This document shows positions 3,181 through 12,839 of a DNA stretch of 59,112 nt, piece after piece (the first letter of the stretch is position 1; every line of letters starts with the position of its first letter). Location: positions 1-59,112 of the IMG/VR virus record IMGVR_UViG_3300047564_002154; one strand, given 5' to 3'. Under the pieces are notes generated by a model that made no database searches, was not told where the DNA came from, and saw only the letters and a list, made by a program, of their open reading frames with translations. The translations under genes were made by a program, and so were the position numbers. The DNA is from a virus (taxonomy: Duplodnaviria > Caudoviricetes).

Positions 3181-4086
3181 ATTATACTCGTAGACTACTC
3201 TCAGGTAGCACTTGCTGCCATTCTCACCTTTCAGCGAGAACTCAAGGGTGACGAATCAGAAGTGAAGAATCTGATTCGTCACGTGACTCTATCTACACTC
3301 AAGTCGCACAAGAAAAAGTATGGTAAAGAATATGGTGAACTGATCATCTGTTGCGACGGTCGTAACTATTGGCGCAGAGAAGTGTTTGAACATTACAAAG
3401 CGTCTCGTAAGAAGAATCGCGAAGCAAGTGACCTTGATTGGCGTCTGATTTTTGACACGCTCAATGAAATGAGGCAAGATATTGCTGAACATTTTCCATG
3501 GCGAGTTATTCACGTCGACCGCGCAGAGGCAGACGACGTTATTGCAGTCATGACTGAGTGGGCACAGACTAATGATCTGATTGTAGAGGGGTTGGTTGAG
3601 GAACCGCAGAAGGTTCTTATTCTTTCTTCTGACAAAGATTTCAAGCAACTGCAGCTGGAGCCATTTTCTTCAGGTAATGTGCGTCAATGGTCGCCGATGC
3701 AGAAGAAATTTATTCAAGCATCAAAGCAAGAAATAATTGACTTTACGGTAGAACACATCGTTAAAGGTGATGCTGGCGACGGTATTCCTAACATTCTATC
3801 TAAAGATGATGTTTTTGTTTCTGGAGATAGGCAGAAGCCAGTGAGCGCAAAACGACTTGCAGAATTTATAGAAAAGGGTGTAGCAGCGTGTCGCACTGAT
3901 GAAGAAAAACGGAATTGGCACCGTAACGCAGTATTGGTTGCGTTCGACAACATCCCCAAAGAAGTTAAACAATCTATCATCAATGCACACCTAAGTAATA
4001 AGCCGAAAGCCGATAAAATGTCTGTTATGAATTATCTCATAGCAAACAAATGTCGTTTACTTCTTGATGAACTAGAAGATTTCTAA
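3181..4086 (+). CDS. rnh: T4-type RNase H / 5'-3' flap exonuclease (probable ATT start)
   Basis: ILVDYSQ, YWRR..YK..R, EADD, SSDKDF, GDAGDGIPN motifs. Confidence 0.92.
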   Translation: MILVDYSQVALAAILTFQRELKGDESEVKNLIRHVTLSTLKSHKKKYGKEYGELIICCDGRNYWRREVFEHYKASRKKNREASDLDWRLIFDTLNEMRQDIAEHFPWRVIHVDRAEADDVIAVMTEWAQTNDLIVEGLVEEPQKVLILSSDKDFKQLQLEPFSSGNVRQWSPMQKKFIQASKQEIIDFTVEHIVKGDAGDGIPNILSKDDVFVSGDRQKPVSAKRLAEFIEKGVAACRTDEEKRNWHRNAVLVAFDNIPKEVKQSIINAHLSNKPKADKMSVMNYLIANKCRLLLDELEDF

Positions 4087-5363: not shown

Positions 5364-5439
5364 ACCCTCTTAGCCAAGTTGGTAAGGCATCGGATTTTGA
5401 TTCCGACATGCGGTGGTTCGAATCCATCAGGGGGTGCCA
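5364..5439 (+). tRNA. tRNA-Gln(TTG)
   Basis: cloverleaf, TCGGA-TTTTGAT-TCCGA, CCA. Confidence 0.92.
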
Positions 5440-5549
5440 TATTGAAGCGCATTAAAGGAAAGACAGAGTGGCGACTGTTCGGTGCACAGCTAGCGCACCG
5501 CAAGCACAAATGAGCTAACATGTGTATTAGTGTGTTTCAATATGGTAGA

Positions 5550-5647
5550 TAGTCAGTTCTAAAAATGGGTACTCAGAATATCCGTTCTCGAAAGGTGCAA
5601 ATCCTGGTTAAGCATAGTAGCCGAGTGAAAAGAGGGCAGACTAGCCA
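5550..5647 (+). ncRNA. CCA-terminated structured RNA of unknown type
   Basis: TAGTC..GACTA terminal stem + GCCA; internal GGTGCAAATCC T-loop-like element. Confidence 0.45.
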
Positions 5648-5732
5648 TATTGAAGCGCATTGCGCGAGCCGGACAATCTCAGTTCGCTGCCTAGCACGAT
5701 CAGGAGAGGACGAAGCCAGTGTGTTTCAATAT

Positions 5733-5803
5733 GGGTCAAAATAGTTCGGCATTACCAGTGCGCCGCAGTGTTGGTAGCGGTTCGATTCCGCTTTGATCCA
5801 CCA
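5733..5803 (+). ncRNA. tRNA-like RNA without D stem, with Ala identity (tmRNA-TLD-like)
   Basis: GGGTCAA/TTGATCC acceptor with G3-U70, A73, CCA, perfect T arm. Confidence 0.6.
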
Positions 5804-5810
5804 AATTTTT

Positions 5811-5885
5811 GCCGATGTAGCTCAGTGGAAGAGCAGTGTCTTGATAAGGCATTGGTCAGTGGTTCAATCCCACTCATCGGTACCA
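5811..5885 (+). tRNA. tRNA-Ile(GAT)
   Basis: cloverleaf, CCA. Confidence 0.92.
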
Positions 5886-5892
5886 AGTTTAT

Positions 5893-5927
5893 GGAAGCGT
5901 GGTAGAGTTGGTTTATTACTACAGTTC
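5893..5927 (+). pseudogene. 5' half remnant of a tRNA-Ser
   Basis: GGAAGCGTGGTAGAGTTGGTTTATTACTACAGT breaks at the anticodon loop. Confidence 0.6.
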
Positions 5928-5971
5928 GTGTAAAAGATGCTTTTGACTAAATAATAGTAGGAGGTACTACT

Positions 5972-6418
5972 ATGAATTGTCAATTTTGCGGTAAACAGAT
6001 AAACAATGCTGGTTCTTTAAAGGCGCACGAAAATGTGTGTAAACAAAACCCAAACGCGGTTAAGAAAGTTAGAAGTCCATTAGCTGGTGCCAAAAAAGGA
6101 CACGTGGCTTGGAACAAAGGTAAGAAAACTGGAAGAATCCAGTACTGGAAAGATCGATATCCTCTTGAAGAGGTTATGGTAGAAAATTCTAGTTATACAA
6201 GACACTCTCTTAAAGCCAGAATACTCGAAGAGAATTTGATTGAGTATCGTTGTGCTTGTTGCGGTATTGGTCCAGAATGGAACGGCAATCCTATGCCACT
6301 GATTCTTGATCACATCAACGGAATTAACAACGATAATCGTTTAGTGAATTTAAGATTTGTTTGTAGTAATTGTGATACACAGTTACCAACGTACAAAGCA
6401 AAGAACAAAGGAAGATAG
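5972..6418 (+). CDS. HNH homing endonuclease
   Basis: CxxC, LDHINGINNDNRLVNLRFVCSNC; late promoter ACTAAATA and RBS hairpin upstream. Confidence 0.92.
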   Translation: MNCQFCGKQINNAGSLKAHENVCKQNPNAVKKVRSPLAGAKKGHVAWNKGKKTGRIQYWKDRYPLEEVMVENSSYTRHSLKARILEENLIEYRCACCGIGPEWNGNPMPLILDHINGINNDNRLVNLRFVCSNCDTQLPTYKAKNKGR

Positions 6419-6496
6419 GGTGCATGGTGCGCAAATGGTCTTGAAAACCATCCTACTGCGAGAGCGGTAACAGTTCGATTCCGTTATCTTCCTCCA
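6410..6496 (+). tRNA. tRNA-Ser(TGA)
   Basis: ATGGT-CTTGAAA-ACCAT, long variable arm, CCA; overlaps the HNH stop. Confidence 0.85.
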
Positions 6497-6502
6497 ATAT
6501 AT

Positions 6503-6578
6503 GCACGTTTAATTCAGTGGTTAGAAGGCAATCCTTACAAGATTGAGGTCGGTGGTTCGAATCCATCAACGTGCACCA
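6503..6578 (+). tRNA. tRNA-Val(TAC)
   Basis: cloverleaf, CCA. Confidence 0.92.
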
Positions 6579-6585
6579 AGTTTAT

Positions 6586-6675
6586 GGAAGTGTGGCTGAG
6601 TGGTCTAAGGCAGCTGCCTAGAAAGCAGTCGAGTCTTCATTGGCTCCGTGGGTTCGAATCCTACCACTTCCGCCA
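6586..6675 (+). tRNA. tRNA-Ser(AGA)
   Basis: GCTGC-CTAGAAA-GCAGT, long variable arm, G73, CCA. Confidence 0.88.
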
Positions 6676-6695
6676 TTTTAATTAAGGAGCGTATC

Positions 6696-6887
6696 ATGGG
6701 TTACAATACAAGACACTTCGACCGTGAAGCCCACTACGCTTCTAAGTCAATAAAAGAACTTCAGCAATATCTGAAAAAAGCTGAACAGTTTTCACAGAAA
6801 TATCCGCAGTTCAAAGATGGATGGCATAATGAGTACATTCATGACCTTCGTCGTAGAATTGCAGAACGTATTGGAAAGAAAGGATAA
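6696..6887 (+). CDS. hypothetical protein
   Basis: AAGGAG SD before ATG 6696. Confidence 0.7.
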   Translation: MGYNTRHFDREAHYASKSIKELQQYLKKAEQFSQKYPQFKDGWHNEYIHDLRRRIAERIGKKG

Positions 6888-6891
6888 GCAT

Positions 6892-6942
6892 ATGCCGCGT
6901 GTATTCTTAGTGAGTGATACACACTTTGGTCTTAACTTCTGA
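6892..6942 (+). pseudogene. orphaned original N-terminus of the metallophosphoesterase (MPRVFLVSDTHFG)
   Basis: 12 of 13 residues match the N-terminus at 7778; has its own SD. Confidence 0.8.
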
Positions 6943-6978
6943 AAATTATAAATAGTTGTGTACTGAAAAGGAACGACT

Positions 6979-7803
6979 ATGAAACAAAAACCAATAAAGA
7001 TATGTCCAGTGTGTTCAACTGAGTATACCACTACAGCAAAGACATGCAGCAGAAAGTGCTCTGGTGTATACCATAGCGGAGAGAATAATCCAAACTATGG
7101 TAAAACGTGGTCAGACGAACAAAAAACTAAACAGAGTGATCTTGTCAAATCTAAAGTTGATGATGTTTATCGACAAAAGGCTGGGTCTGCTAATAAGGGA
7201 GTGAAATTCTCTAAAGACCGAATAGAGTCAATGCACGGTCATAGAAATTCAGAATCATATTCAAGACCACATTCTGAGGATACCAAAAAGATAATTGGTA
7301 TTAAGTCTAGAGAGAAGTTCACCGATGAATATAAACAACGACAGAGAGAAAATTTTGTTGACCTTGGTTACTGGGTTTCTGATGATGATAAAGATGATTA
7401 TGAAATATATGTTGAGCATAGTGAGTGGATACAATCTATGTGGAATTATGCGGATAAATCGTTGTTAGAAACTGTTGGTATATTCAACGTCAAAACCAAT
7501 AGAAATGGACTCGTTAGAGATCACATTTTATCTAGAAAGTTTGGATTTGATGTTGGGGTATTTCCAGAAATTCTTAGACATCCTTGCAACTGTAATATTA
7601 TTACGCATAGTGAAAACTCTTCCAAGAGAGAAAAGTCTGGGATGACTTTTAATGAGTTGTGTAGTAAAATAGAATCATATGATATGGTTTGGGAAGAACA
7701 AGAATTGGTTCTTTCTTTGATTAACAAATGGAGAAACGGTGAACGATTCTCCGCTAACGATTATAGGAGGAAGTCACATGCCATCAGTATTTCTGGTATC
7801 TGA
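6979..7803 (+). CDS. putative homing endonuclease (Zn finger, NUMOD3-like repeats, HNH-like C-terminus)
   Basis: CPVC..CSRKC, GENNPNYGK, HSEDTKKII, RDHILS..HPCNC..ENSSK; late promoter TATAAATA 6947-6954. Confidence 0.8.
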   Translation: MKQKPIKICPVCSTEYTTTAKTCSRKCSGVYHSGENNPNYGKTWSDEQKTKQSDLVKSKVDDVYRQKAGSANKGVKFSKDRIESMHGHRNSESYSRPHSEDTKKIIGIKSREKFTDEYKQRQRENFVDLGYWVSDDDKDDYEIYVEHSEWIQSMWNYADKSLLETVGIFNVKTNRNGLVRDHILSRKFGFDVGVFPEILRHPCNCNIITHSENSSKREKSGMTFNELCSKIESYDMVWEEQELVLSLINKWRNGERFSANDYRRKSHAISISGI

Positions 7804-8357
7804 CACACACTTTCGGTCACGCTGGCGTATGCAGATTTACTCGTGATGATGGTGTAACAAAATTAAGACCATGGACAGATCCAGATGAGATGGATGAATA
7901 CATGGTAAAAGTTTGGAACGAAACCGTGAAGCCGAATGACAAAGTTTATCACTTGGGTGATGTAGTGATTAACCGTAAAGCATTGGGTGTCATGAAACGT
8001 TTGAACGGTGATAAAGTTTTAATTCGCGGTAACCATGACATCTTTAAAGACGATGAATATCGTGAATACTTTAGAGAACTTCGCGCATATCATGTGATGA
8101 ATGGTATGATTCTTTCTCACATACCGTTGCATCCAGATTCTCTTGGTCGTTTTGGTGTCAATATTCATGGACACTTACACTATCAAAGAGTCATGAAAGA
8201 CGACGGTTATGGTGGTCATGTTATTGATACTAGATATCATTGCGTCTGCGTTGAACAAACTGATTATCGACCAATTATTTTTGAAGACGTTCTTAAACGA
8301 ATCAAAGACGAAGGTGGAGAAGTTGGATTCCGTAACGGTAATGGTCCAGCGATGTGA
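7778..8357 (+). CDS. calcineurin-like metallophosphoesterase requiring a +1 frameshift at 7811-7814
   Basis: SDTHF^GH, LGD, GNHD, HGHLH motifs; GGAGG SD at ATG 7778. Confidence 0.85.
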
Positions 8358-8361
8358 TTTA

Positions 8362-8393
8362 GGAGAGTGGGCAGGATGGTAATGCAGCGGATT
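8362..8393 (+). pseudogene. 5' half remnant of a tRNA-Ser
   Basis: GGAGAGTGGGCAGGATGGTAATGCAGCGGATT breaks at the anticodon loop. Confidence 0.6.
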
Positions 8394-8415
8394 CATTTTT
8401 AGAAGAAAAGAAATT

Positions 8416-8508
8416 GGTGAGTTGGATGAGTGGCTGAAATCGGCACCCTGCTAAGGTGTTAGTCATCTAAACAATGGCTCGTGGGTTCGAATCCCACACT
8501 CACCGCCA
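8416..8508 (+). tRNA. tRNA-Ser(GCT)
   Basis: cloverleaf, long variable arm, CCA. Confidence 0.92.
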
Positions 8509-8570
8509 GTTGCAAACGCTCGCATAATTTAATATAACGAGTGTGTGAATAATTATTTTATTGGAGCGCC

Positions 8571-9326
8571 ATGAATATACGCAAAGCCTGGGGTGAGATT
8601 ATATTCTCAGAATATAGATTGTACATGATACAGTTGCAATGGCCATCTGATGGATGGGATGAATACTGTGTTAGATTAGTATTCGCTTTTTGGCGATTCT
8701 ATATTTCCATTAATCTATGGAGAACCAAACCATGGAAAGATTTTGAAACACAAGCGCCGCGTTACGGTGTATCATTTCATGATTCTATTATTTGGCTATC
8801 GTATGGTGCTGACCGATCATTTAATATTAATATGCCATGGAAATGGGAGATCGTAAGGCATGATCTGTTATATCCAAACGGTGAGGTTTATCATAGAAAT
8901 AAATATCCGATGCGCACACCAGCACAAAAGAAACGCGAGATAACCTGGTATGATGTGTTTGAAAAACACAGTAATCGTCAAGATGAAGTTCAAGTTCTTG
9001 TTGCAAAATTTATCACTCTGACGCGGCACACTAAAGATGGTAGAAAACAGATTGCCAAAATTCGTTTGACTGGAGAAGAACGAGAGTGGAGATGGAGATG
9101 GTTTAAATGGTTACCTTGGCCAAACCTAAAGCAACGTGTCGTAAATTGTGATTCTGATGTTGAACTGGGAGAAAGAGCCGGTAGCTGGAAGGGTGGTATG
9201 ATGGGTTGGAGTATTCCATGGGAAGTCTGGGGAAGGGGTATACTCGATCCCAGTATTCCATGGGAAACTGATGACACCATGCAAAGAGCCTTTTGGAAAT
9301 GGTATAAAACATGGGATGGTAATTAA
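8571..9326 (+). CDS. Trp-rich hypothetical protein
   Basis: 251-aa ORF, GGAG SD. Confidence 0.75.
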   Translation: MNIRKAWGEIIFSEYRLYMIQLQWPSDGWDEYCVRLVFAFWRFYISINLWRTKPWKDFETQAPRYGVSFHDSIIWLSYGADRSFNINMPWKWEIVRHDLLYPNGEVYHRNKYPMRTPAQKKREITWYDVFEKHSNRQDEVQVLVAKFITLTRHTKDGRKQIAKIRLTGEEREWRWRWFKWLPWPNLKQRVVNCDSDVELGERAGSWKGGMMGWSIPWEVWGRGILDPSIPWETDDTMQRAFWKWYKTWDGN

Positions 9327-9402
9327 TATAATTCATCCTTGAACGTCTGTTGTGAAAATATTTGTTGACATGCAAGAATAAATGTGGTATAATAGTTTAG
9401 AC

Positions 9403-9486
9403 GCGAGTGTGGTGGAACGGTATACACAGCAGACTTAAAATCTGCCGCCGCAAGGCTTGAGGGTTCGAGTCCCTCCACTCGCACCA
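9403..9486 (+). tRNA. tRNA-Leu(TAA)
   Basis: cloverleaf; TTGACA-N17-TATAAT promoter just upstream. Confidence 0.93.
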
Positions 9487-9508
9487 GTTAAAGAAAGTGA
9501 TAGCGAAT

Positions 9509-9877
9509 ATGAAATTGACTTTTGTATACAAAATTCTTCCTGCGCTAGTGCACTATACAGATAATATTAAAAATGGATTCGGTGGAATCGTGAATGGACC
9601 TTATGTTCGCATTCGTCCGAAATATGAAGGTGTGGACGAAGGATTGTTTCAGCATGAATTGACGCACGTCAAGCAGTGGTATAGAACTCTCGGAACGCAC
9701 GGAATTTGGTATATGTGTTCTGAGACATATAGGTTAAACTGCGAGATAGAAGCATATAAGGTTCAAGCATCTTACTATAATTATGATGCGTTTCCTTGGA
9801 TGGCGAAGATGATTGCTTCTAAGTATAATATAACGAAATATTCTGAAAACCAAATTTTAGATATGTTGCGGCATTGA
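9509..9877 (+). CDS. HExxH-motif protein (possible zinc metallopeptidase)
   Basis: HELTHVKQW...EIEAY. Confidence 0.65.
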   Translation: MKLTFVYKILPALVHYTDNIKNGFGGIVNGPYVRIRPKYEGVDEGLFQHELTHVKQWYRTLGTHGIWYMCSETYRLNCEIEAYKVQASYYNYDAFPWMAKMIASKYNITKYSENQILDMLRH

Positions 9878-10004
9878 TTCCTGTTGAAGTTATATTAAAT
9901 CCAGCAAAAATAATGCTTGACTTATATACATAATTGAAGTATAATATGTCTTATGATAGTTAATCAAAACACGTTATAACTAGATACACGCAAAGGAGTT
10001 CGCG

Positions 10005-10199
10005 ATGGAAAAGTTCACAGCACACATTCGACTGGCGACTACCGCATACCCTAAGTTCGTAGTTATTGTGCGCGAACTAAAGTTCGACACTATACGTCAA
10101 AGTGAATGCTATGTGACAACAATTGTGCGAGAATATAGCTATCGGCGATCCGCTGAGAAATTTGCTGAACAGTATGGATGGAAACCAGAACAACCTTGA
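10005..10199 (+). CDS. hypothetical protein
   Basis: AAGGAG SD, upstream TTGACT/TATAAT promoter. Confidence 0.65.
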   Translation: MEKFTAHIRLATTAYPKFVVIVRELKFDTIRQSECYVTTIVREYSYRRSAEKFAEQYGWKPEQP

Positions 10200-10214
10200 T
10201 GCGGTATTGAATAT

Positions 10215-10290
10215 ACGGCTGTAGCTCAGTGGACAGAGCAGTTGGCTTCTACCCAATAGGTCGGGAGTTCGAATCTCTCCAGCCGTGCCA
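10215..10290 (+). tRNA. tRNA-Arg(TCT)
   Basis: cloverleaf, CCA. Confidence 0.92.
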
Positions 10291-10305
10291 GTTATGATAT
10301 GAATT

Positions 10306-10380
10306 GCGCCGATAGCTTAATGGTAAAGCGAAGAACTCATAATTCTGGGAGTGTAGGTTCAATTCCTACTCGGCGCACCA
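10306..10380 (+). tRNA. tRNA-Met/Ile2(CAT), elongator type
   Basis: cloverleaf, G1-C72 paired. Confidence 0.88.
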
Positions 10381-10386
10381 AGATAT

Positions 10387-10461
10387 GCACAGATGACAGA
10401 ATGGTAATGTCGCAGTCTGCAAAACTGTTGTTCGCGAGTTCGATTCTCGCTCTGTGCTCCA
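10387..10461 (+). tRNA. tRNA-Cys(GCA)
   Basis: cloverleaf, U73, CCA. Confidence 0.92.
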
Positions 10462-10667
10462 GAAAGTTGTTGACTTAATTGTATGCTTCGTGTATAATTA
10501 TGTTTGTTAGGTTGTTTGAAGTTTTTGTTTATCTCATAAGACCACTCTAAGTCGGCAGTCGAATCTGACGCGTGTGGCATAAACAAGTGGCATTGAAGAA
10601 TACGCGCAGTTGTGTTCTTCCCACTAATGAGTTTGGCAGATACTCTAAAAACAACTGCCCCTTTTTC

Positions 10668-10752
10668 GGAGATGCGGCTAAGTTGGAGGGTGGCGGCTGA
10701 CTGTAAATCAGTTTCTTAGGACTAATAGGTTCGAATCCTATCATCTCCACCA
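10668..10752 (+). tRNA. tRNA-Tyr(GTA)
   Basis: cloverleaf, long variable arm. Confidence 0.9.
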
Positions 10753-10758
10753 ATTTAT

Positions 10759-10833
10759 GGCTTGGTCGTATAAAGGTTATTACTTCGGATTGTCTATCCG
10801 ATTATCGGGGTTCGATTCCCCGCCAGGTCGCCA
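10759..10833 (+). tRNA. tRNA-Asp(GTC)
   Basis: cloverleaf, CCA. Confidence 0.92.
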
Positions 10834-10906
10834 AGTTTTTAGGGTTCTTTCAGCAATTTAAAAATTTTCACTGTTATTGAAAACATAGCGAATCTTGTTT
10901 AGTATT

Positions 10907-10980
10907 GCCCTTTTAGTTAAATGGTATAACAGTTGACTTGTAATCATCAATCGTTGGTTCGATTCCATCAAGGGGCACCA
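10907..10980 (+). tRNA. tRNA-Thr(TGT), copy 1
   Basis: cloverleaf, CCA. Confidence 0.92.
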
Positions 10981-10999
10981 AGTTTATTGAAAGGAAATT

Positions 11000-11359
11000 A
11001 TGTACTGGGGATACCACTTAATGCTTGATTGTTCTGAGTGTGATGTTGACTCAATGAAAGACAAGCAAAACATTTATAATTTCGTTAAAGTGCTGATTCA
11101 AAGAATCGATATGGTTGCGCATGGTGAACCTATCATTGAATTTTTATGCCCAGGCGATGAAGGTAAAGAAGGGTATAGTTTGATGCAATTGATTACTACA
11201 TCATGTATAACAGGACATTTTATTGATCATCATGGGCACATATATATTGATGTGTTTAGTTGTAAAGAGTTTGAAGCTGATGTAGTGAAACGAACAGTAC
11301 AAGAATTTTTTGGTGCTAAAAAGATGAGAATGAATTTTATCACCAGAAATGCAGATTGA
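11000..11359 (+). CDS. speD: S-adenosylmethionine decarboxylase-like proenzyme
   Basis: GYHLMLDC, GYS..QLITTSCITGHF, IDVFSCK. Confidence 0.8.
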   Translation: MYWGYHLMLDCSECDVDSMKDKQNIYNFVKVLIQRIDMVAHGEPIIEFLCPGDEGKEGYSLMQLITTSCITGHFIDHHGHIYIDVFSCKEFEADVVKRTVQEFFGAKKMRMNFITRNAD

Positions 11360-11360
11360 T

Positions 11361-11434
11361 AGCGGGGTAGAGAAACGGTATCTCAGAAGTTTCATATGCT
11401 TCAGTTGGTGGTTCGACTCCGCCCTCCGCAACCA
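11361..11434 (+). tRNA. tRNA-Met(CAT), initiator-like
   Basis: A1xA72 mismatch, A11-U24; anticodon stem lacks the 3 G-C pairs. Confidence 0.8.
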
Positions 11435-11659
11435 AAATTAGTCCCGCGATGGCTATGACTGATCATCCCTATTCAGTTATCCACACTTCCGCGAGGTAGG
11501 TGAAAGCCCTATCATTAAAAATATGCGAGTGATGGTGGACTTCGCATACGGACTTCTAGACCTGAGGATCGTCGTCCAATATTAAAAAGACACAATATTC
11601 TCTGTTTAGGGACAGAGAGCATTGTTGAGAATATTATAACAGTATTTTCAATAATGATT

Positions 11660-11733
11660 GCCCTTTTAGTTAAATGGTATAACAGTTGACTTGTAATCAT
11701 CAATCGTTGGTTCGATTCCATCAAGGGGCACCA
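11660..11733 (+). tRNA. tRNA-Thr(TGT), copy 2
   Basis: identical to 10907-10980. Confidence 0.92.
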
Positions 11734-11741
11734 AGTTTTCT

Positions 11742-11818
11742 CGGAGTATAGCACAGCCTGGTAGTGCGCATGGTTTGGGACCATGAGGTCGTAGGTTCGA
11801 TCCCTACTACTCCGACCA
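11742..11818 (+). tRNA. tRNA-Pro(TGG)
   Basis: cloverleaf, CCA. Confidence 0.93.
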
Positions 11819-11857
11819 TTGAATGATAAATGTTTTATAAGTAGTAGACAGTTTAGC

Positions 11858-11942
11858 GCGGATGTGGCGTAATTGGTAGCCGCACTGGATTTAGGTTCCA
11901 GCGAGTAAAATCGTGTGAGTTCGAGTCTCACCATCCGCACCA
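11858..11942 (+). tRNA. tRNA-Leu(TAG)
   Basis: cloverleaf, long variable arm. Confidence 0.93.
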
Positions 11943-11949
11943 GATTTAT

Positions 11950-12024
11950 TCCGAGATAGCACAGCGGTAGTGCAGAAGACTGTTAATCTTTTGGTCGTAG
12001 GTTCGATCCCTACTCTCGGAGCCA
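11950..12024 (+). tRNA. tRNA-Asn(GTT)
   Basis: cloverleaf, CCA. Confidence 0.93.
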
Positions 12025-12030
12025 TATTAT

Positions 12031-12104
12031 GGGGGATTAGTATAATGGGATTACGGCAGCTTTGCAAGCTGTTTATGAGAGTTCGATTCTCTCATCCTCC
12101 ACCA
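12031..12104 (+). tRNA. tRNA-Ala(TGC)
   Basis: cloverleaf, G3-U70. Confidence 0.93.
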
Positions 12105-12114
12105 AGTTTAGTTT

Positions 12115-12188
12115 GCCCATATAGTTAAATGGTATAACATCGGTTTAGTAATCCGAAATTTGCAGTTCGATTCTGTGTATGGGCACCA
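12115..12188 (+). tRNA. tRNA-Thr(AGT)
   Basis: TCGGT-TTAGTAA-TCCGA; D arm identical to the Thr(TGT) copies. Confidence 0.85.
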
Positions 12189-12239
12189 GTATTTCGTTAG
12201 TGTATGTTGGCAACACCATTGTCACGAGATGTAGAATAC

Positions 12240-12314
12240 GCGGGTAAGGTGTTTATGGATACATTCGAGTCTTCCAAACTTGAGTAGTCGGATCGTTACC
12301 GACTACCCGCTCCA
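12240..12314 (+). tRNA. tRNA-Gly(TCC)
   Basis: cloverleaf, atypical T loop ATCGTTA. Confidence 0.85.
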
Positions 12315-12330
12315 ACTTTATGGTATAATC

Positions 12331-12579
12331 ATGAAAAATACAGCACAGTTCCAACTAATTCAACAGACAGCTCCACATATTGCAGAAAAGATGGAATTGT
12401 TTTGGGGTACGCAATATTTTAGTGAATATGTCAATATATTGATGGTCAACACTGGAAATGGTAGAGAAAAATTGGACCAGAATGTTTTTAACGCAATTTA
12501 CGAATTGTTAAAACAACATGAAAAACTACACCCACGCGATGTTAAAACAAATGTGTGGGATGGTTATTATAAGTGGTAA
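12331..12579 (+). CDS. hypothetical protein
   Basis: PHIAEKMELFWGT motif; ATG 12331. Confidence 0.7.
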   Translation: MKNTAQFQLIQQTAPHIAEKMELFWGTQYFSEYVNILMVNTGNGREKLDQNVFNAIYELLKQHEKLHPRDVKTNVWDGYYKW

Positions 12580-12590
12580 TAAAGAATAAT

Positions 12591-12663
12591 ATCTCTCTGG
12601 TGTAATGGCAGCACTGCATTCTCCAAAACTGTAAGTGGGGGTCGAGTCCCTCGAGGGATGCCA
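12591..12663 (+). tRNA. tRNA-Trp(CCA), degenerate
   Basis: acceptor and D arm intact; mismatched anticodon stem, T loop lacks TTC. Confidence 0.6.
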
Positions 12664-12764
12664 AGAACATGCAAAAGAAGGCAAGAGCATGTCCCGTCTG
12701 AACAACGGAACTAAGGGTGTGTGACTACCGAACCCCGGAAACTAAAATGGTCGGTGCCGAATAT

Positions 12765-12839
12765 GCGGGTGTGGTGCTAATGGTAACACATATCCTTGCC
12801 AAGGACAAGTTGCGGGTTCGATTCCCGCCACCCGCTCCA
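12765..12839 (+). tRNA. tRNA-Gly(GCC)
   Basis: cloverleaf, CCA. Confidence 0.9.

Follow-up and report, generated by a model that had tools for sequence, protein, structure and literature searches.

A putative homing endonuclease cassette in a phage phosphoesterase gene and a one-base insertion that ribosomes probably read through by +1 frameshifting

How can a phage enzyme gene remain usable when a mobile endonuclease gene has displaced its start and a surplus base interrupts its metal-site codons? This question is raised by positions 6,892 to 8,357 of the IMG/VR virus record IMGVR_UViG_3300047564_002154 (Duplodnaviria; Caudoviricetes). The stretch that we analysed, hereafter the window, spans positions 1 to 59,112 of that record; it is a 59-kb metagenome-assembled fragment of an uncultured virus, about 37% complete according to CheckV. 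Within it, an endonuclease open reading frame (ORF) is inserted in conserved codons of a phosphoesterase (PE) gene, and its presence or absence is polymorphic among relatives. Our preferred reading, which we hold with a probability of roughly 70%, is that a mobile cassette with a homing endonuclease gene (HEG) occupies the PE gene, and that ribosomes get past its protective one-base insertion by a +1 frameshift at UUU CGG. An earlier note on this DNA had proposed the same for the window as a single case. For the window, the observation was confirmed and the interpretation is supported in outline, but the case does not stand alone: a whole family of HEG-linked PE genes is affected, some with multi-base gaps that we read as translational bypass. 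Judged from sequence, the cassette belongs to a previously undescribed set that would also use short and long translational bypass.

The locus lies inside a cluster of 23 tRNA genes (5364-12839; ARAGORN). An orphan 5' fragment of the PE gene is followed by the HEG (274 aa), then by a replacement ribosome-binding site (RBS) with an ATG and 12 codons, and finally by the PE body:

6892..6942, + strand: orphan PE 5' fragment, 16 codons and a stop; PE homology ends at about 6931
6947..6954, + strand: TATAAATA motif ahead of the HEG, read in the sequence
6979..7803, + strand: putative homing endonuclease, 274 aa, with a zinc finger, NUMOD3 and, at the C-terminal end, conserved His/Asn residues forming a motif; the final codons run into the new PE start
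7765..7770, + strand: AGGAGG RBS for the replacement start, within the codons of the HEG's conserved C-terminal YRRK
7778..7813, + strand: cassette-borne replacement 5' segment MPSVFLVSDTHF, with the D-x-H metal-site codons
7811..7816, + strand: proposed +1 shift site UUU CGG (TTT 7811-7813, C 7814, GGT from 7815)
7844..7846, + strand: zero-frame stop codon
7815..8357, + strand: PE body in the +1 frame, 180 codons and a stop, intact, with GD, GNHD and GHLH motifs

The orphan ATG at 6892 encodes MPRVFLVSDTHFG, then LNF and a stop (6940-6942). Its match to the cassette-borne copy is 8 of 9 residues but only 19 of 30 nucleotides, so it is not a recent duplication of that copy. The HEG and the new PE start overlap at 7778-7803. 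The extra base can be taken as C7814 or, equivalently, as one T of 7811-7813 added to TTC; many relatives read TTC GGT here. The zero frame stops at 7844-7846 and the +1 frame stays open into the enzyme (7815-8357), exactly as first described. From its D-x-H, GD and GNH[DE] motifs and its profile match, the target gene is predicted to encode a calcineurin-like metallophosphoesterase: the +1-frame body matches the phrog_547 phosphoesterase (E 1.6e-41), and Pfam Metallophos and Metallophos_2 score slightly below cut-off for the body alone, while homologues carry PF00149/PF12850. Translated with one four-base step, the read-through PE has 192 aa. Of the 120 best-listed full-length proteins, 119 are 81-87% identical to it across 96-100% of its length; the exception, the top-listed match (P0004), is longer (246 aa) and 59% identical. 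The motif TATAAATA (6947..6954), which also precedes the endonuclease genes in L083/L087 and L084, presumably resembles the T4 late-promoter consensus.

Is the interruption peculiar to this locus? Viral contigs were searched with an alignment of 29 HEG members, giving 46 loci, one of which (L089) was the L083 contig again and was left out. By tblastn, a PE gene directly follows the HEG in 39 of the 45 loci, even at 24-54% PE identity to the window's. The other six are L116-L119, where the next gene is a different one, and the partial matches L132 and L133. The gene after the HEG match (~3295-3400) in L116-L119 is uninterrupted, with an H-x-G-H-like motif in its N-terminus, and may be a second target gene. 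The metal-site codons were scanned by joining D.H..H across a gap of 0-40 nt, with an upstream start codon and downstream GD and GNH[DE] required; off-target paralogues were excluded by motif filters (L093, L116-119) and by a limit to the HEG-adjacent zone (L098, L124). The scan covered 43 HEG-linked PE genes, namely those of the window, L084, L085, L087, 38 family-search loci and L134 (whole-locus scan only). Of these, 35 are interrupted within the six metal-site codons D-x-H-x-x-H. As a control, we took 80 PE loci that a search with just the PE protein had retrieved, independently of the HEG. None was interrupted (gap 0 in 80/80, against 35/43 interrupted among the HEG-linked genes), although these controls are the best tblastn matches to the read-through protein, a choice that favours uninterrupted genes.

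The 43 genes fall into three classes. Eight are continuous, with no gap. Thirteen have a gap of 1 nt, always UUU followed by C or U, with CGG (8), UGG (3), UUC (1), CUC (1) or CCA (1) as the A-site codon; for L101, a +4 hop was considered and then replaced by the scan's 1-nt solution, UUU CCA. The other 22 have gaps of 4-26 nt, and the lengths seen across both interrupted classes are 1, 4, 5, 6, 7, 10, 11, 22 and 26 nt. For each of the 22 longer gaps there is a reading in which a stop immediately follows the take-off codon; the figure means no more than that such a reading exists, because the scan prefers a stop in the A site among equal solutions. In 18 of the 22, the gap closes with the take-off codon itself or with a synonym of it; the landing triplets of L096, L108, L114 and L127 are non-synonymous. 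Six of the 22 are repeat copies (duplicates L091/092, L102/103/107, L104/105, L112/113 and L128/129), so that by distinct site sequence there are 16 loci, 12 of them with matched codons. The matched pairs include Leu-stop-Leu, Gln-stop-Gln and Ser-stop-Ser in frame, and Thr, Ile, Phe, Tyr and Gly pairs out of frame.

Twelve loci (L102, L103, L107, L110, L104, L105, L128, L129, L111, L112, L113 and L109) carry, between the D and the H of the motif, an in-frame 6-nt insertion made up of a codon, a stop and a synonymous codon. These look like natural stop-hops. Short tRNA hops over a stop codon were reportedly described in E. coli test constructs by Weiss et al. in 1987 and O'Connor et al. in 1989; the 12 PE loci resemble them in the codon-stop-synonymous codon gap and differ from them in being natural genes, linked to a mobile element and interrupted at a catalytic motif. 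In seven HEG-linked loci (L094, L100, L120-L123 and L126) the PE gene is uninterrupted, and most of these have unusual motif residues (W-Y, Y-N and A-Q among them). Such genes may resist by amino-acid change instead of by insertion.

What might make ribosomes shift at the window site? CGG is the rarest of the 61 sense codons in the window (19 of 10,473; 1.8 per 1000), and an in-frame TTT CGG is found in none of the 44 other window ORFs. The 23 window tRNA genes include none that reads CGN, as had been claimed, and the sole tRNA-Arg has the anticodon TCT. At all 13 one-base loci the sequence is UUU_Ynn, on which the P-site tRNA is able to re-pair in the +1 frame (UUU to UUC in the window). In PMC5009743, the UUU_Ynn tetranucleotide is called especially prone to +1 shifting in bacteria, slow A-site codons are said to favour +1 shifts, the influenza shift cassette is given as UCC_UUU_CGU, and protective indels compensated by frameshifting form a named class. 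The earlier note's identification of UUU-CGN as a +1 slip context agrees with both the 13 loci and this literature. A slow A-site codon fits the window (CGG) but not all relatives, which also use UGG, UUC, CUC and CCA. The exact sequence UUU CGG is kept in the window, L087, L090, L095 and L097, whose HEGs are 44-77% identical and whose PEs are down to 31% identical.

Four distinct alleles (window, L083/L087, L084 and L085) have the window-type cassette and its extra base in common. Their PE bodies are 69-76% identical to each other, and the window's is 83% identical to in-frame alleles. When the four are aligned, the last ~140 nt of the HEG, on through the new start to the extra base, are nearly invariant, and the DNA beyond is diverged. 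In L083/L087 the arrangement is complete, with a different orphan of its own and an endonuclease 77% identical to that of the window. L084 and L085 have the HEG cut to a ~140-nt 3' remnant, and both have kept the remnant, the RBS, the ATG, the extra base and an intact PE frame, with no orphan exon. A deletion in L085 has removed the upstream part as far as a truncated tRNA gene; in L084 the place of the NUMOD3 endonuclease is taken by a GIY-YIG endonuclease gene, on the reverse strand ahead of the PE start. Together, the nearly invariant cassette stretch, the diverged PE bodies and the HEG remnants argue that the extra base is part of an element that passes from one phage background to another and persists when its endonuclease is lost. 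The expected link between extra base and endonuclease was thus found in 4/4 window-type alleles, in two of them with a HEG remnant. In L084, L085 and L087, moreover, only 14 nt of open +1 frame precede the UUU, and the zero frame meets a stop two codons past it, so that a shift which keeps the D-x-H and G-H residues can take place only at UUU-C.

A copy of L084's GIY-YIG gene, 73% identical, lies directly after the PE gene in L087, and several endonucleases appear to turn over at the PE locus. A scan for the cassette junction pattern returned the same three viral contigs, and did so again with any base allowed at the inserted position. Metagenome contigs gave three matches, one from the same phage as L083 and two (L086, L088) that were discarded as chance matches. 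Such exact patterns miss diverged relatives; it was the alignment-based search that revealed the HEG family.

The proposal that the endonuclease splits the PE gene and supplies a new 5' end is supported across the family: of the 34 interrupted loci assessed, 18 have an orphan 5' fragment ahead of the HEG, and of the 8 continuous ones none does. The distance from orphan to endonuclease ATG is mostly 74-96 nt (212 nt in L108). Ten orphans were compared, and all run through the Gly codon (a non-Gly equivalent in L087, L098 and L108). Eight also run through the second His codon, at which the window and L090 depart from the family sequence. Once they leave the PE family sequence, the orphans stop within 0-4 codons. 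These end points put the insertion at the second His codon or immediately 3' of it, which is a few bases beyond the recoding site. In nine other loci orphan and cassette copy share 16-24 of 30 nt, a level of identity which, like the window's, indicates that the two copies come from different sources.

These observations can be joined in the following model. The cassette would insert into the PE gene just after the D-x-H-x-G-H metal-site codons, bringing with it a promoter-like motif, the NUMOD3 endonuclease gene, an RBS within the HEG end, and an ATG with 12 codons that re-encode the N-terminus; the original PE start would be displaced and persist upstream as the orphan. The extra pyrimidine after the Phe codon (UUU CGG) would break the endonuclease's recognition or cleavage site, so that the carrier would be immune. 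With peptidyl-tRNA-Phe on UUU, some ribosomes would then stall over the rare CGG in the A site, move one base forward to re-pair on UUC and resume at GGU CAC, yielding the normal protein.

Several other explanations deserve consideration. The extra base might be a sequencing or assembly error in a PE gene that is truly in frame. The window is, after all, metagenome-assembled, and at its positions 6926 and 7812 contigs X1 and X2 have loose ends from which same-sample contigs continue as in-frame TTC GGY CAC, so endonuclease-free in-frame alleles co-occur with the cassette allele. Yet X1 and X2, which come from two samples in two studies (both samples flagged as possible sources of the window DNA), match the window over 6850-8400 with 0 differences and 0 gaps, and X5 (151 nt), from a third study, has 0 differences over 7729-7879. 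Contig X7 (171 nt), from an RNA library although possibly derived from DNA, differs at 5 positions over 7766-7898 (96% identical) and has no gap. A degenerate pattern of motif plus extra base was found in three more viral contigs, diverged and from other assemblies, and in one metagenome contig, a longer copy of the same phage as one of the three; all extra-base contigs read UUU CGG at the site. Exactly one extra C (C7814), as first reported, is therefore what the DNA contains, and error is for practical purposes already refuted. Repair at the RNA level, by splicing out of a HEG-containing intron or by editing away of the extra base, would also restore the frame. Phage endonuclease genes often reside in group I introns, and the orphan ends exactly where the body would resume. 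Against this, Rfam matched no intron family at E<=10 in 6500-8600 (the non-tRNA matches were at chance level, below the gathering score), and there is no room for an intron core, because only 36 nt separate the orphan stop from the HEG start and the HEG stop overlaps the new start. The same site is present in L084 and L085, which have no orphan exon to splice, and X7, with the caveat on its origin given above, retains the base. The element had been described as non-splicing, and we likewise regard repair of the RNA as extremely improbable. Hardly more credible is four-base decoding, in which an expanded-anticodon tRNA, possibly phage-encoded, would read UUUC or CGGN in one step. The phage has at least 23 tRNA genes and only 37% of its genome is in hand; but ARAGORN shows no unusual anticodon loop, no tRNA-Phe and no CGN-reading tRNA-Arg in the window, and one special tRNA cannot serve all relatives because they use five A-site codons after UUU, plus multi-base gaps.

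A more substantial challenge is that the cassette is purely selfish and the PE gene dead: the insertion would protect the cassette's own target and nothing more, and the intact frame would reflect recent homing into live genes. The PE may be dispensable: genes for it that lack the HEG abound, with matches in at least 600 stretches. In the PE body, the four window-type alleles do not group with one another, a polyphyly that fits repeated recent invasions and means that intact frames could partly reflect recent homing into live genes. No RNA structure is predicted at the window site (z +0.46) and no Shine-Dalgarno-like stimulator lies just upstream, so the efficiency of shifting could be low. 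Synonymous sites are saturated in most pairs, so selection after insertion can be argued for few of them, and dN/dS cannot separate the time before insertion from the time after it. Together with the four non-synonymous landing triplets, the scan's preference for stops and the bias in the choice of controls, these points weigh against a frameshifted, functional gene. What a dead gene leaves unexplained is that all 13 one-base insertions create UUU_Y, that the 22 longer gaps can each start with a stop and that 18 end in a synonymous match to the take-off codon, and that the cassette keeps a strong RBS, an ATG and the D-x-H codons. It also leaves unexplained why 34 of the 35 interrupted genes have a full-length downstream frame (158-213 codons, with GD and GNH[DE]) and no second lesion; the remaining one, L127, runs off its contig, and the intact frames include loci with a decayed HEG (L084, L085, L108, L128 and L129). 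Finally, L102 and L110, which have the same 6-nt gap, are about as diverged in the PE body (proportions of nonsynonymous and synonymous differences, pN 0.150 and pS 0.614) as in the HEG (pN 0.158, pS 0.569), with pN well below pS. This equal divergence fits joint descent under purifying selection while the gene was interrupted, and the window and L087 show the same pattern with synonymous sites near saturation. We consider a dead PE gene unlikely, and continue to prefer a protective insertion that is read through by frameshifting.

The window protein is best called a putative nuclease, as significance is reached by DNA-binding motifs only. NUMOD3 scores 23 bits (Pfam cut-off 20.4; E 7.7e-5) and is found at E<=1 in 28 of the 29 family members; the match to the I-TevI zinc finger is weak (E 0.12; 1i3j at E 0.41). 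No Pfam HNH model matched any of the 29 members, and a Foldseek search with the AF2 model (pLDDT 83) gave no significant match, the best being Cas9 (E 0.32-1.1), the SspE C-terminal domain (E 2.5) and Cap5 (E 6.9). In the 29-member alignment, however, D181, H182, H201, P202, N204 and N213 are invariant and H210 nearly so, and the resulting D-H ... H-P-x-N ... H-x-x-N pattern, together with the modelled strand-strand-helix at 178-215, would fit an HNH site. The family numbers 128 proteins in the protein collection. Many relatives end in the same tail, which corresponds to a PE start read out of frame, and the YRRK codons (window 7759-7770) that encode AGGAGG are kept even in members that are ~50% identical. 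Among cultured phages, a near-identity search found nothing, a distant search gave one unrelated 346-nt match, and tblastn with the HEG matched 16 records, all below 60% identity.

How does the PE system relate to known recoding? The phage T4 MobA element, with the 50-nt translational bypass of gene 60, was reportedly described by Bonocora et al. in 2011. According to Manning and Atkins (bioRxiv 10.1101/2022.08.31.505936), MobA elements comprise an HNH gene (269-279 aa), a segment carried by the insert that is homologous to the deleted target and overlaps the endonuclease ORF, and, at the 3' end of the insert, a bypass cassette with matched take-off and landing codons. Such elements are kept after endonuclease loss, can have a GIY-YIG replacement, and give protection from MobA nicking. 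Every structural feature in this list recurs at the PE loci, in another gene. Here too, a free-standing endonuclease gene of ~270 aa lies within a phage enzyme gene, at conserved metal-site codons, the insert-borne homologous segment overlaps the endonuclease ORF out of frame (7778-7803), and the recoding element at the insert's 3' end is kept after endonuclease decay (L084, L085). The resemblance extends to RNA in two loci, L093 (2260-2320) and L106 (3385-3450), whose PE gaps of 22 and 26 nt begin with a Gly codon followed by UAG, within a strong UUCG-loop hairpin, and end in a Gly codon, in L093 the same as the take-off codon. These hairpins (-18.5 and -16.8 kcal/mol; z -5.6 and -4.2) match the take-off hairpin of gene 60 in the T4 record, L093 differing at two positions with one base pair kept, and as in gene 60 the UAG comes after a Gly codon.

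There are also clear differences from T4. The target is a metallophosphoesterase and not topoisomerase II. We also considered the HEG as a relative of T4 MobE and rejected this, the two families having no detectable similarity (E 0.41, hhalign probability 0.1%). Unlike gene 60, the PE is not split into two proteins; it receives a complete new N-terminus, and the former one stays behind as an orphan. Moreover, whereas gene 60 skips ~50 nt, recoding at the PE loci would range from a 1-nt frameshift to 26-nt gaps. By analogy, then, the PE system is best read as a parallel to T4 mobA/gene 60 in a new gene and with a new HEG family. In the MobE insertion in nrdA of phage Aeh1, as presented by Manning and Atkins, the endonuclease gene likewise lies inside an enzyme ORF with no intron or intein, but there the split gene gains tails and makes two polypeptides that reassemble, while here a 13-aa orphan is discarded and the insert supplies the full N-terminus. 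At the one-base sites the nearest counterparts are +1 shifts at UUU_Ynn and 'hungry' codons, for which PMC5009743 cites E. coli, YopN-TyeA of Yersinia, influenza A (UCC_UUU_CGU) and yeast Ty1 (CUU_AGG_C). As at these sites, the P-site tRNA-Phe can re-pair (on UUC or UUU), the A site holds a slow codon (the rarest of the window) and downstream structure is not needed; unlike them, the shift predicted here is compensatory, restoring a single normal product with no second one.

Manning and Atkins place the MobA element in the topoisomerase gene only, say that its cassette "remains unique", and leave programmed bypassing known almost entirely from gene 60 of T4 and direct homologues of it within that topoisomerase gene. 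Our literature search found no paper on the phosphoesterase case, with most subscription journals and supplements outside its reach, and the Manning and Atkins supplements may hold non-topoisomerase cases.

The surroundings of the locus hold a few further features. At 5972-6418, flanked by tRNA genes, is a second ORF for a free-standing HNH endonuclease (phrog_10822, E 1.7e-29; Pfam HNH_3 weak). Near the tRNA cluster, the ORF at 8571-9326 matches the CBASS inhibitor Acb3 family (PF25187, E 1.1e-20) and is likely an anti-defence gene. Two of the tRNA genes called by ARAGORN, tRNA-Ser at 6586-6675 (AGA) and tRNA-Thr at 12115-12188 (AGT), have an A at the first anticodon position, which is unusual for bacterial-type tRNAs. 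A promoter scan gave 5 sites against 5.9 expected, which is not above chance; one of them (7642-7670) lies within the stretch kept by L084, and L085 keeps its second hexamer only.

What would these loci mean for phages and their mobile elements? We lean, by a little, towards the view that translational recoding is a general and repeatedly evolved self-immunity device of free-standing homing endonucleases. The insertions with which one endonuclease family, in diverse phages, guards its target in the PE metal-site codons would then form a graded series, from a 1-nt +1 shift through 4-11-nt stop-hops to 22-26-nt gaps with the gene 60 hairpin, all decoded by re-pairing of the P-site tRNA. If this is true, the gene 60 hairpin is a portable module, and natural bypass sites rise from a handful to dozens, with naturally varied gap length. 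The PE loci would give a second independent bypass system, in another gene and with another endonuclease family, that offers a natural series of gap lengths and take-off codons. They make it testable whether recoding elements arise as protection against homing endonucleases, what the ribosome needs in order to slip or hop, and how annotation pipelines should handle "broken" phage genes that adjoin endonuclease genes.

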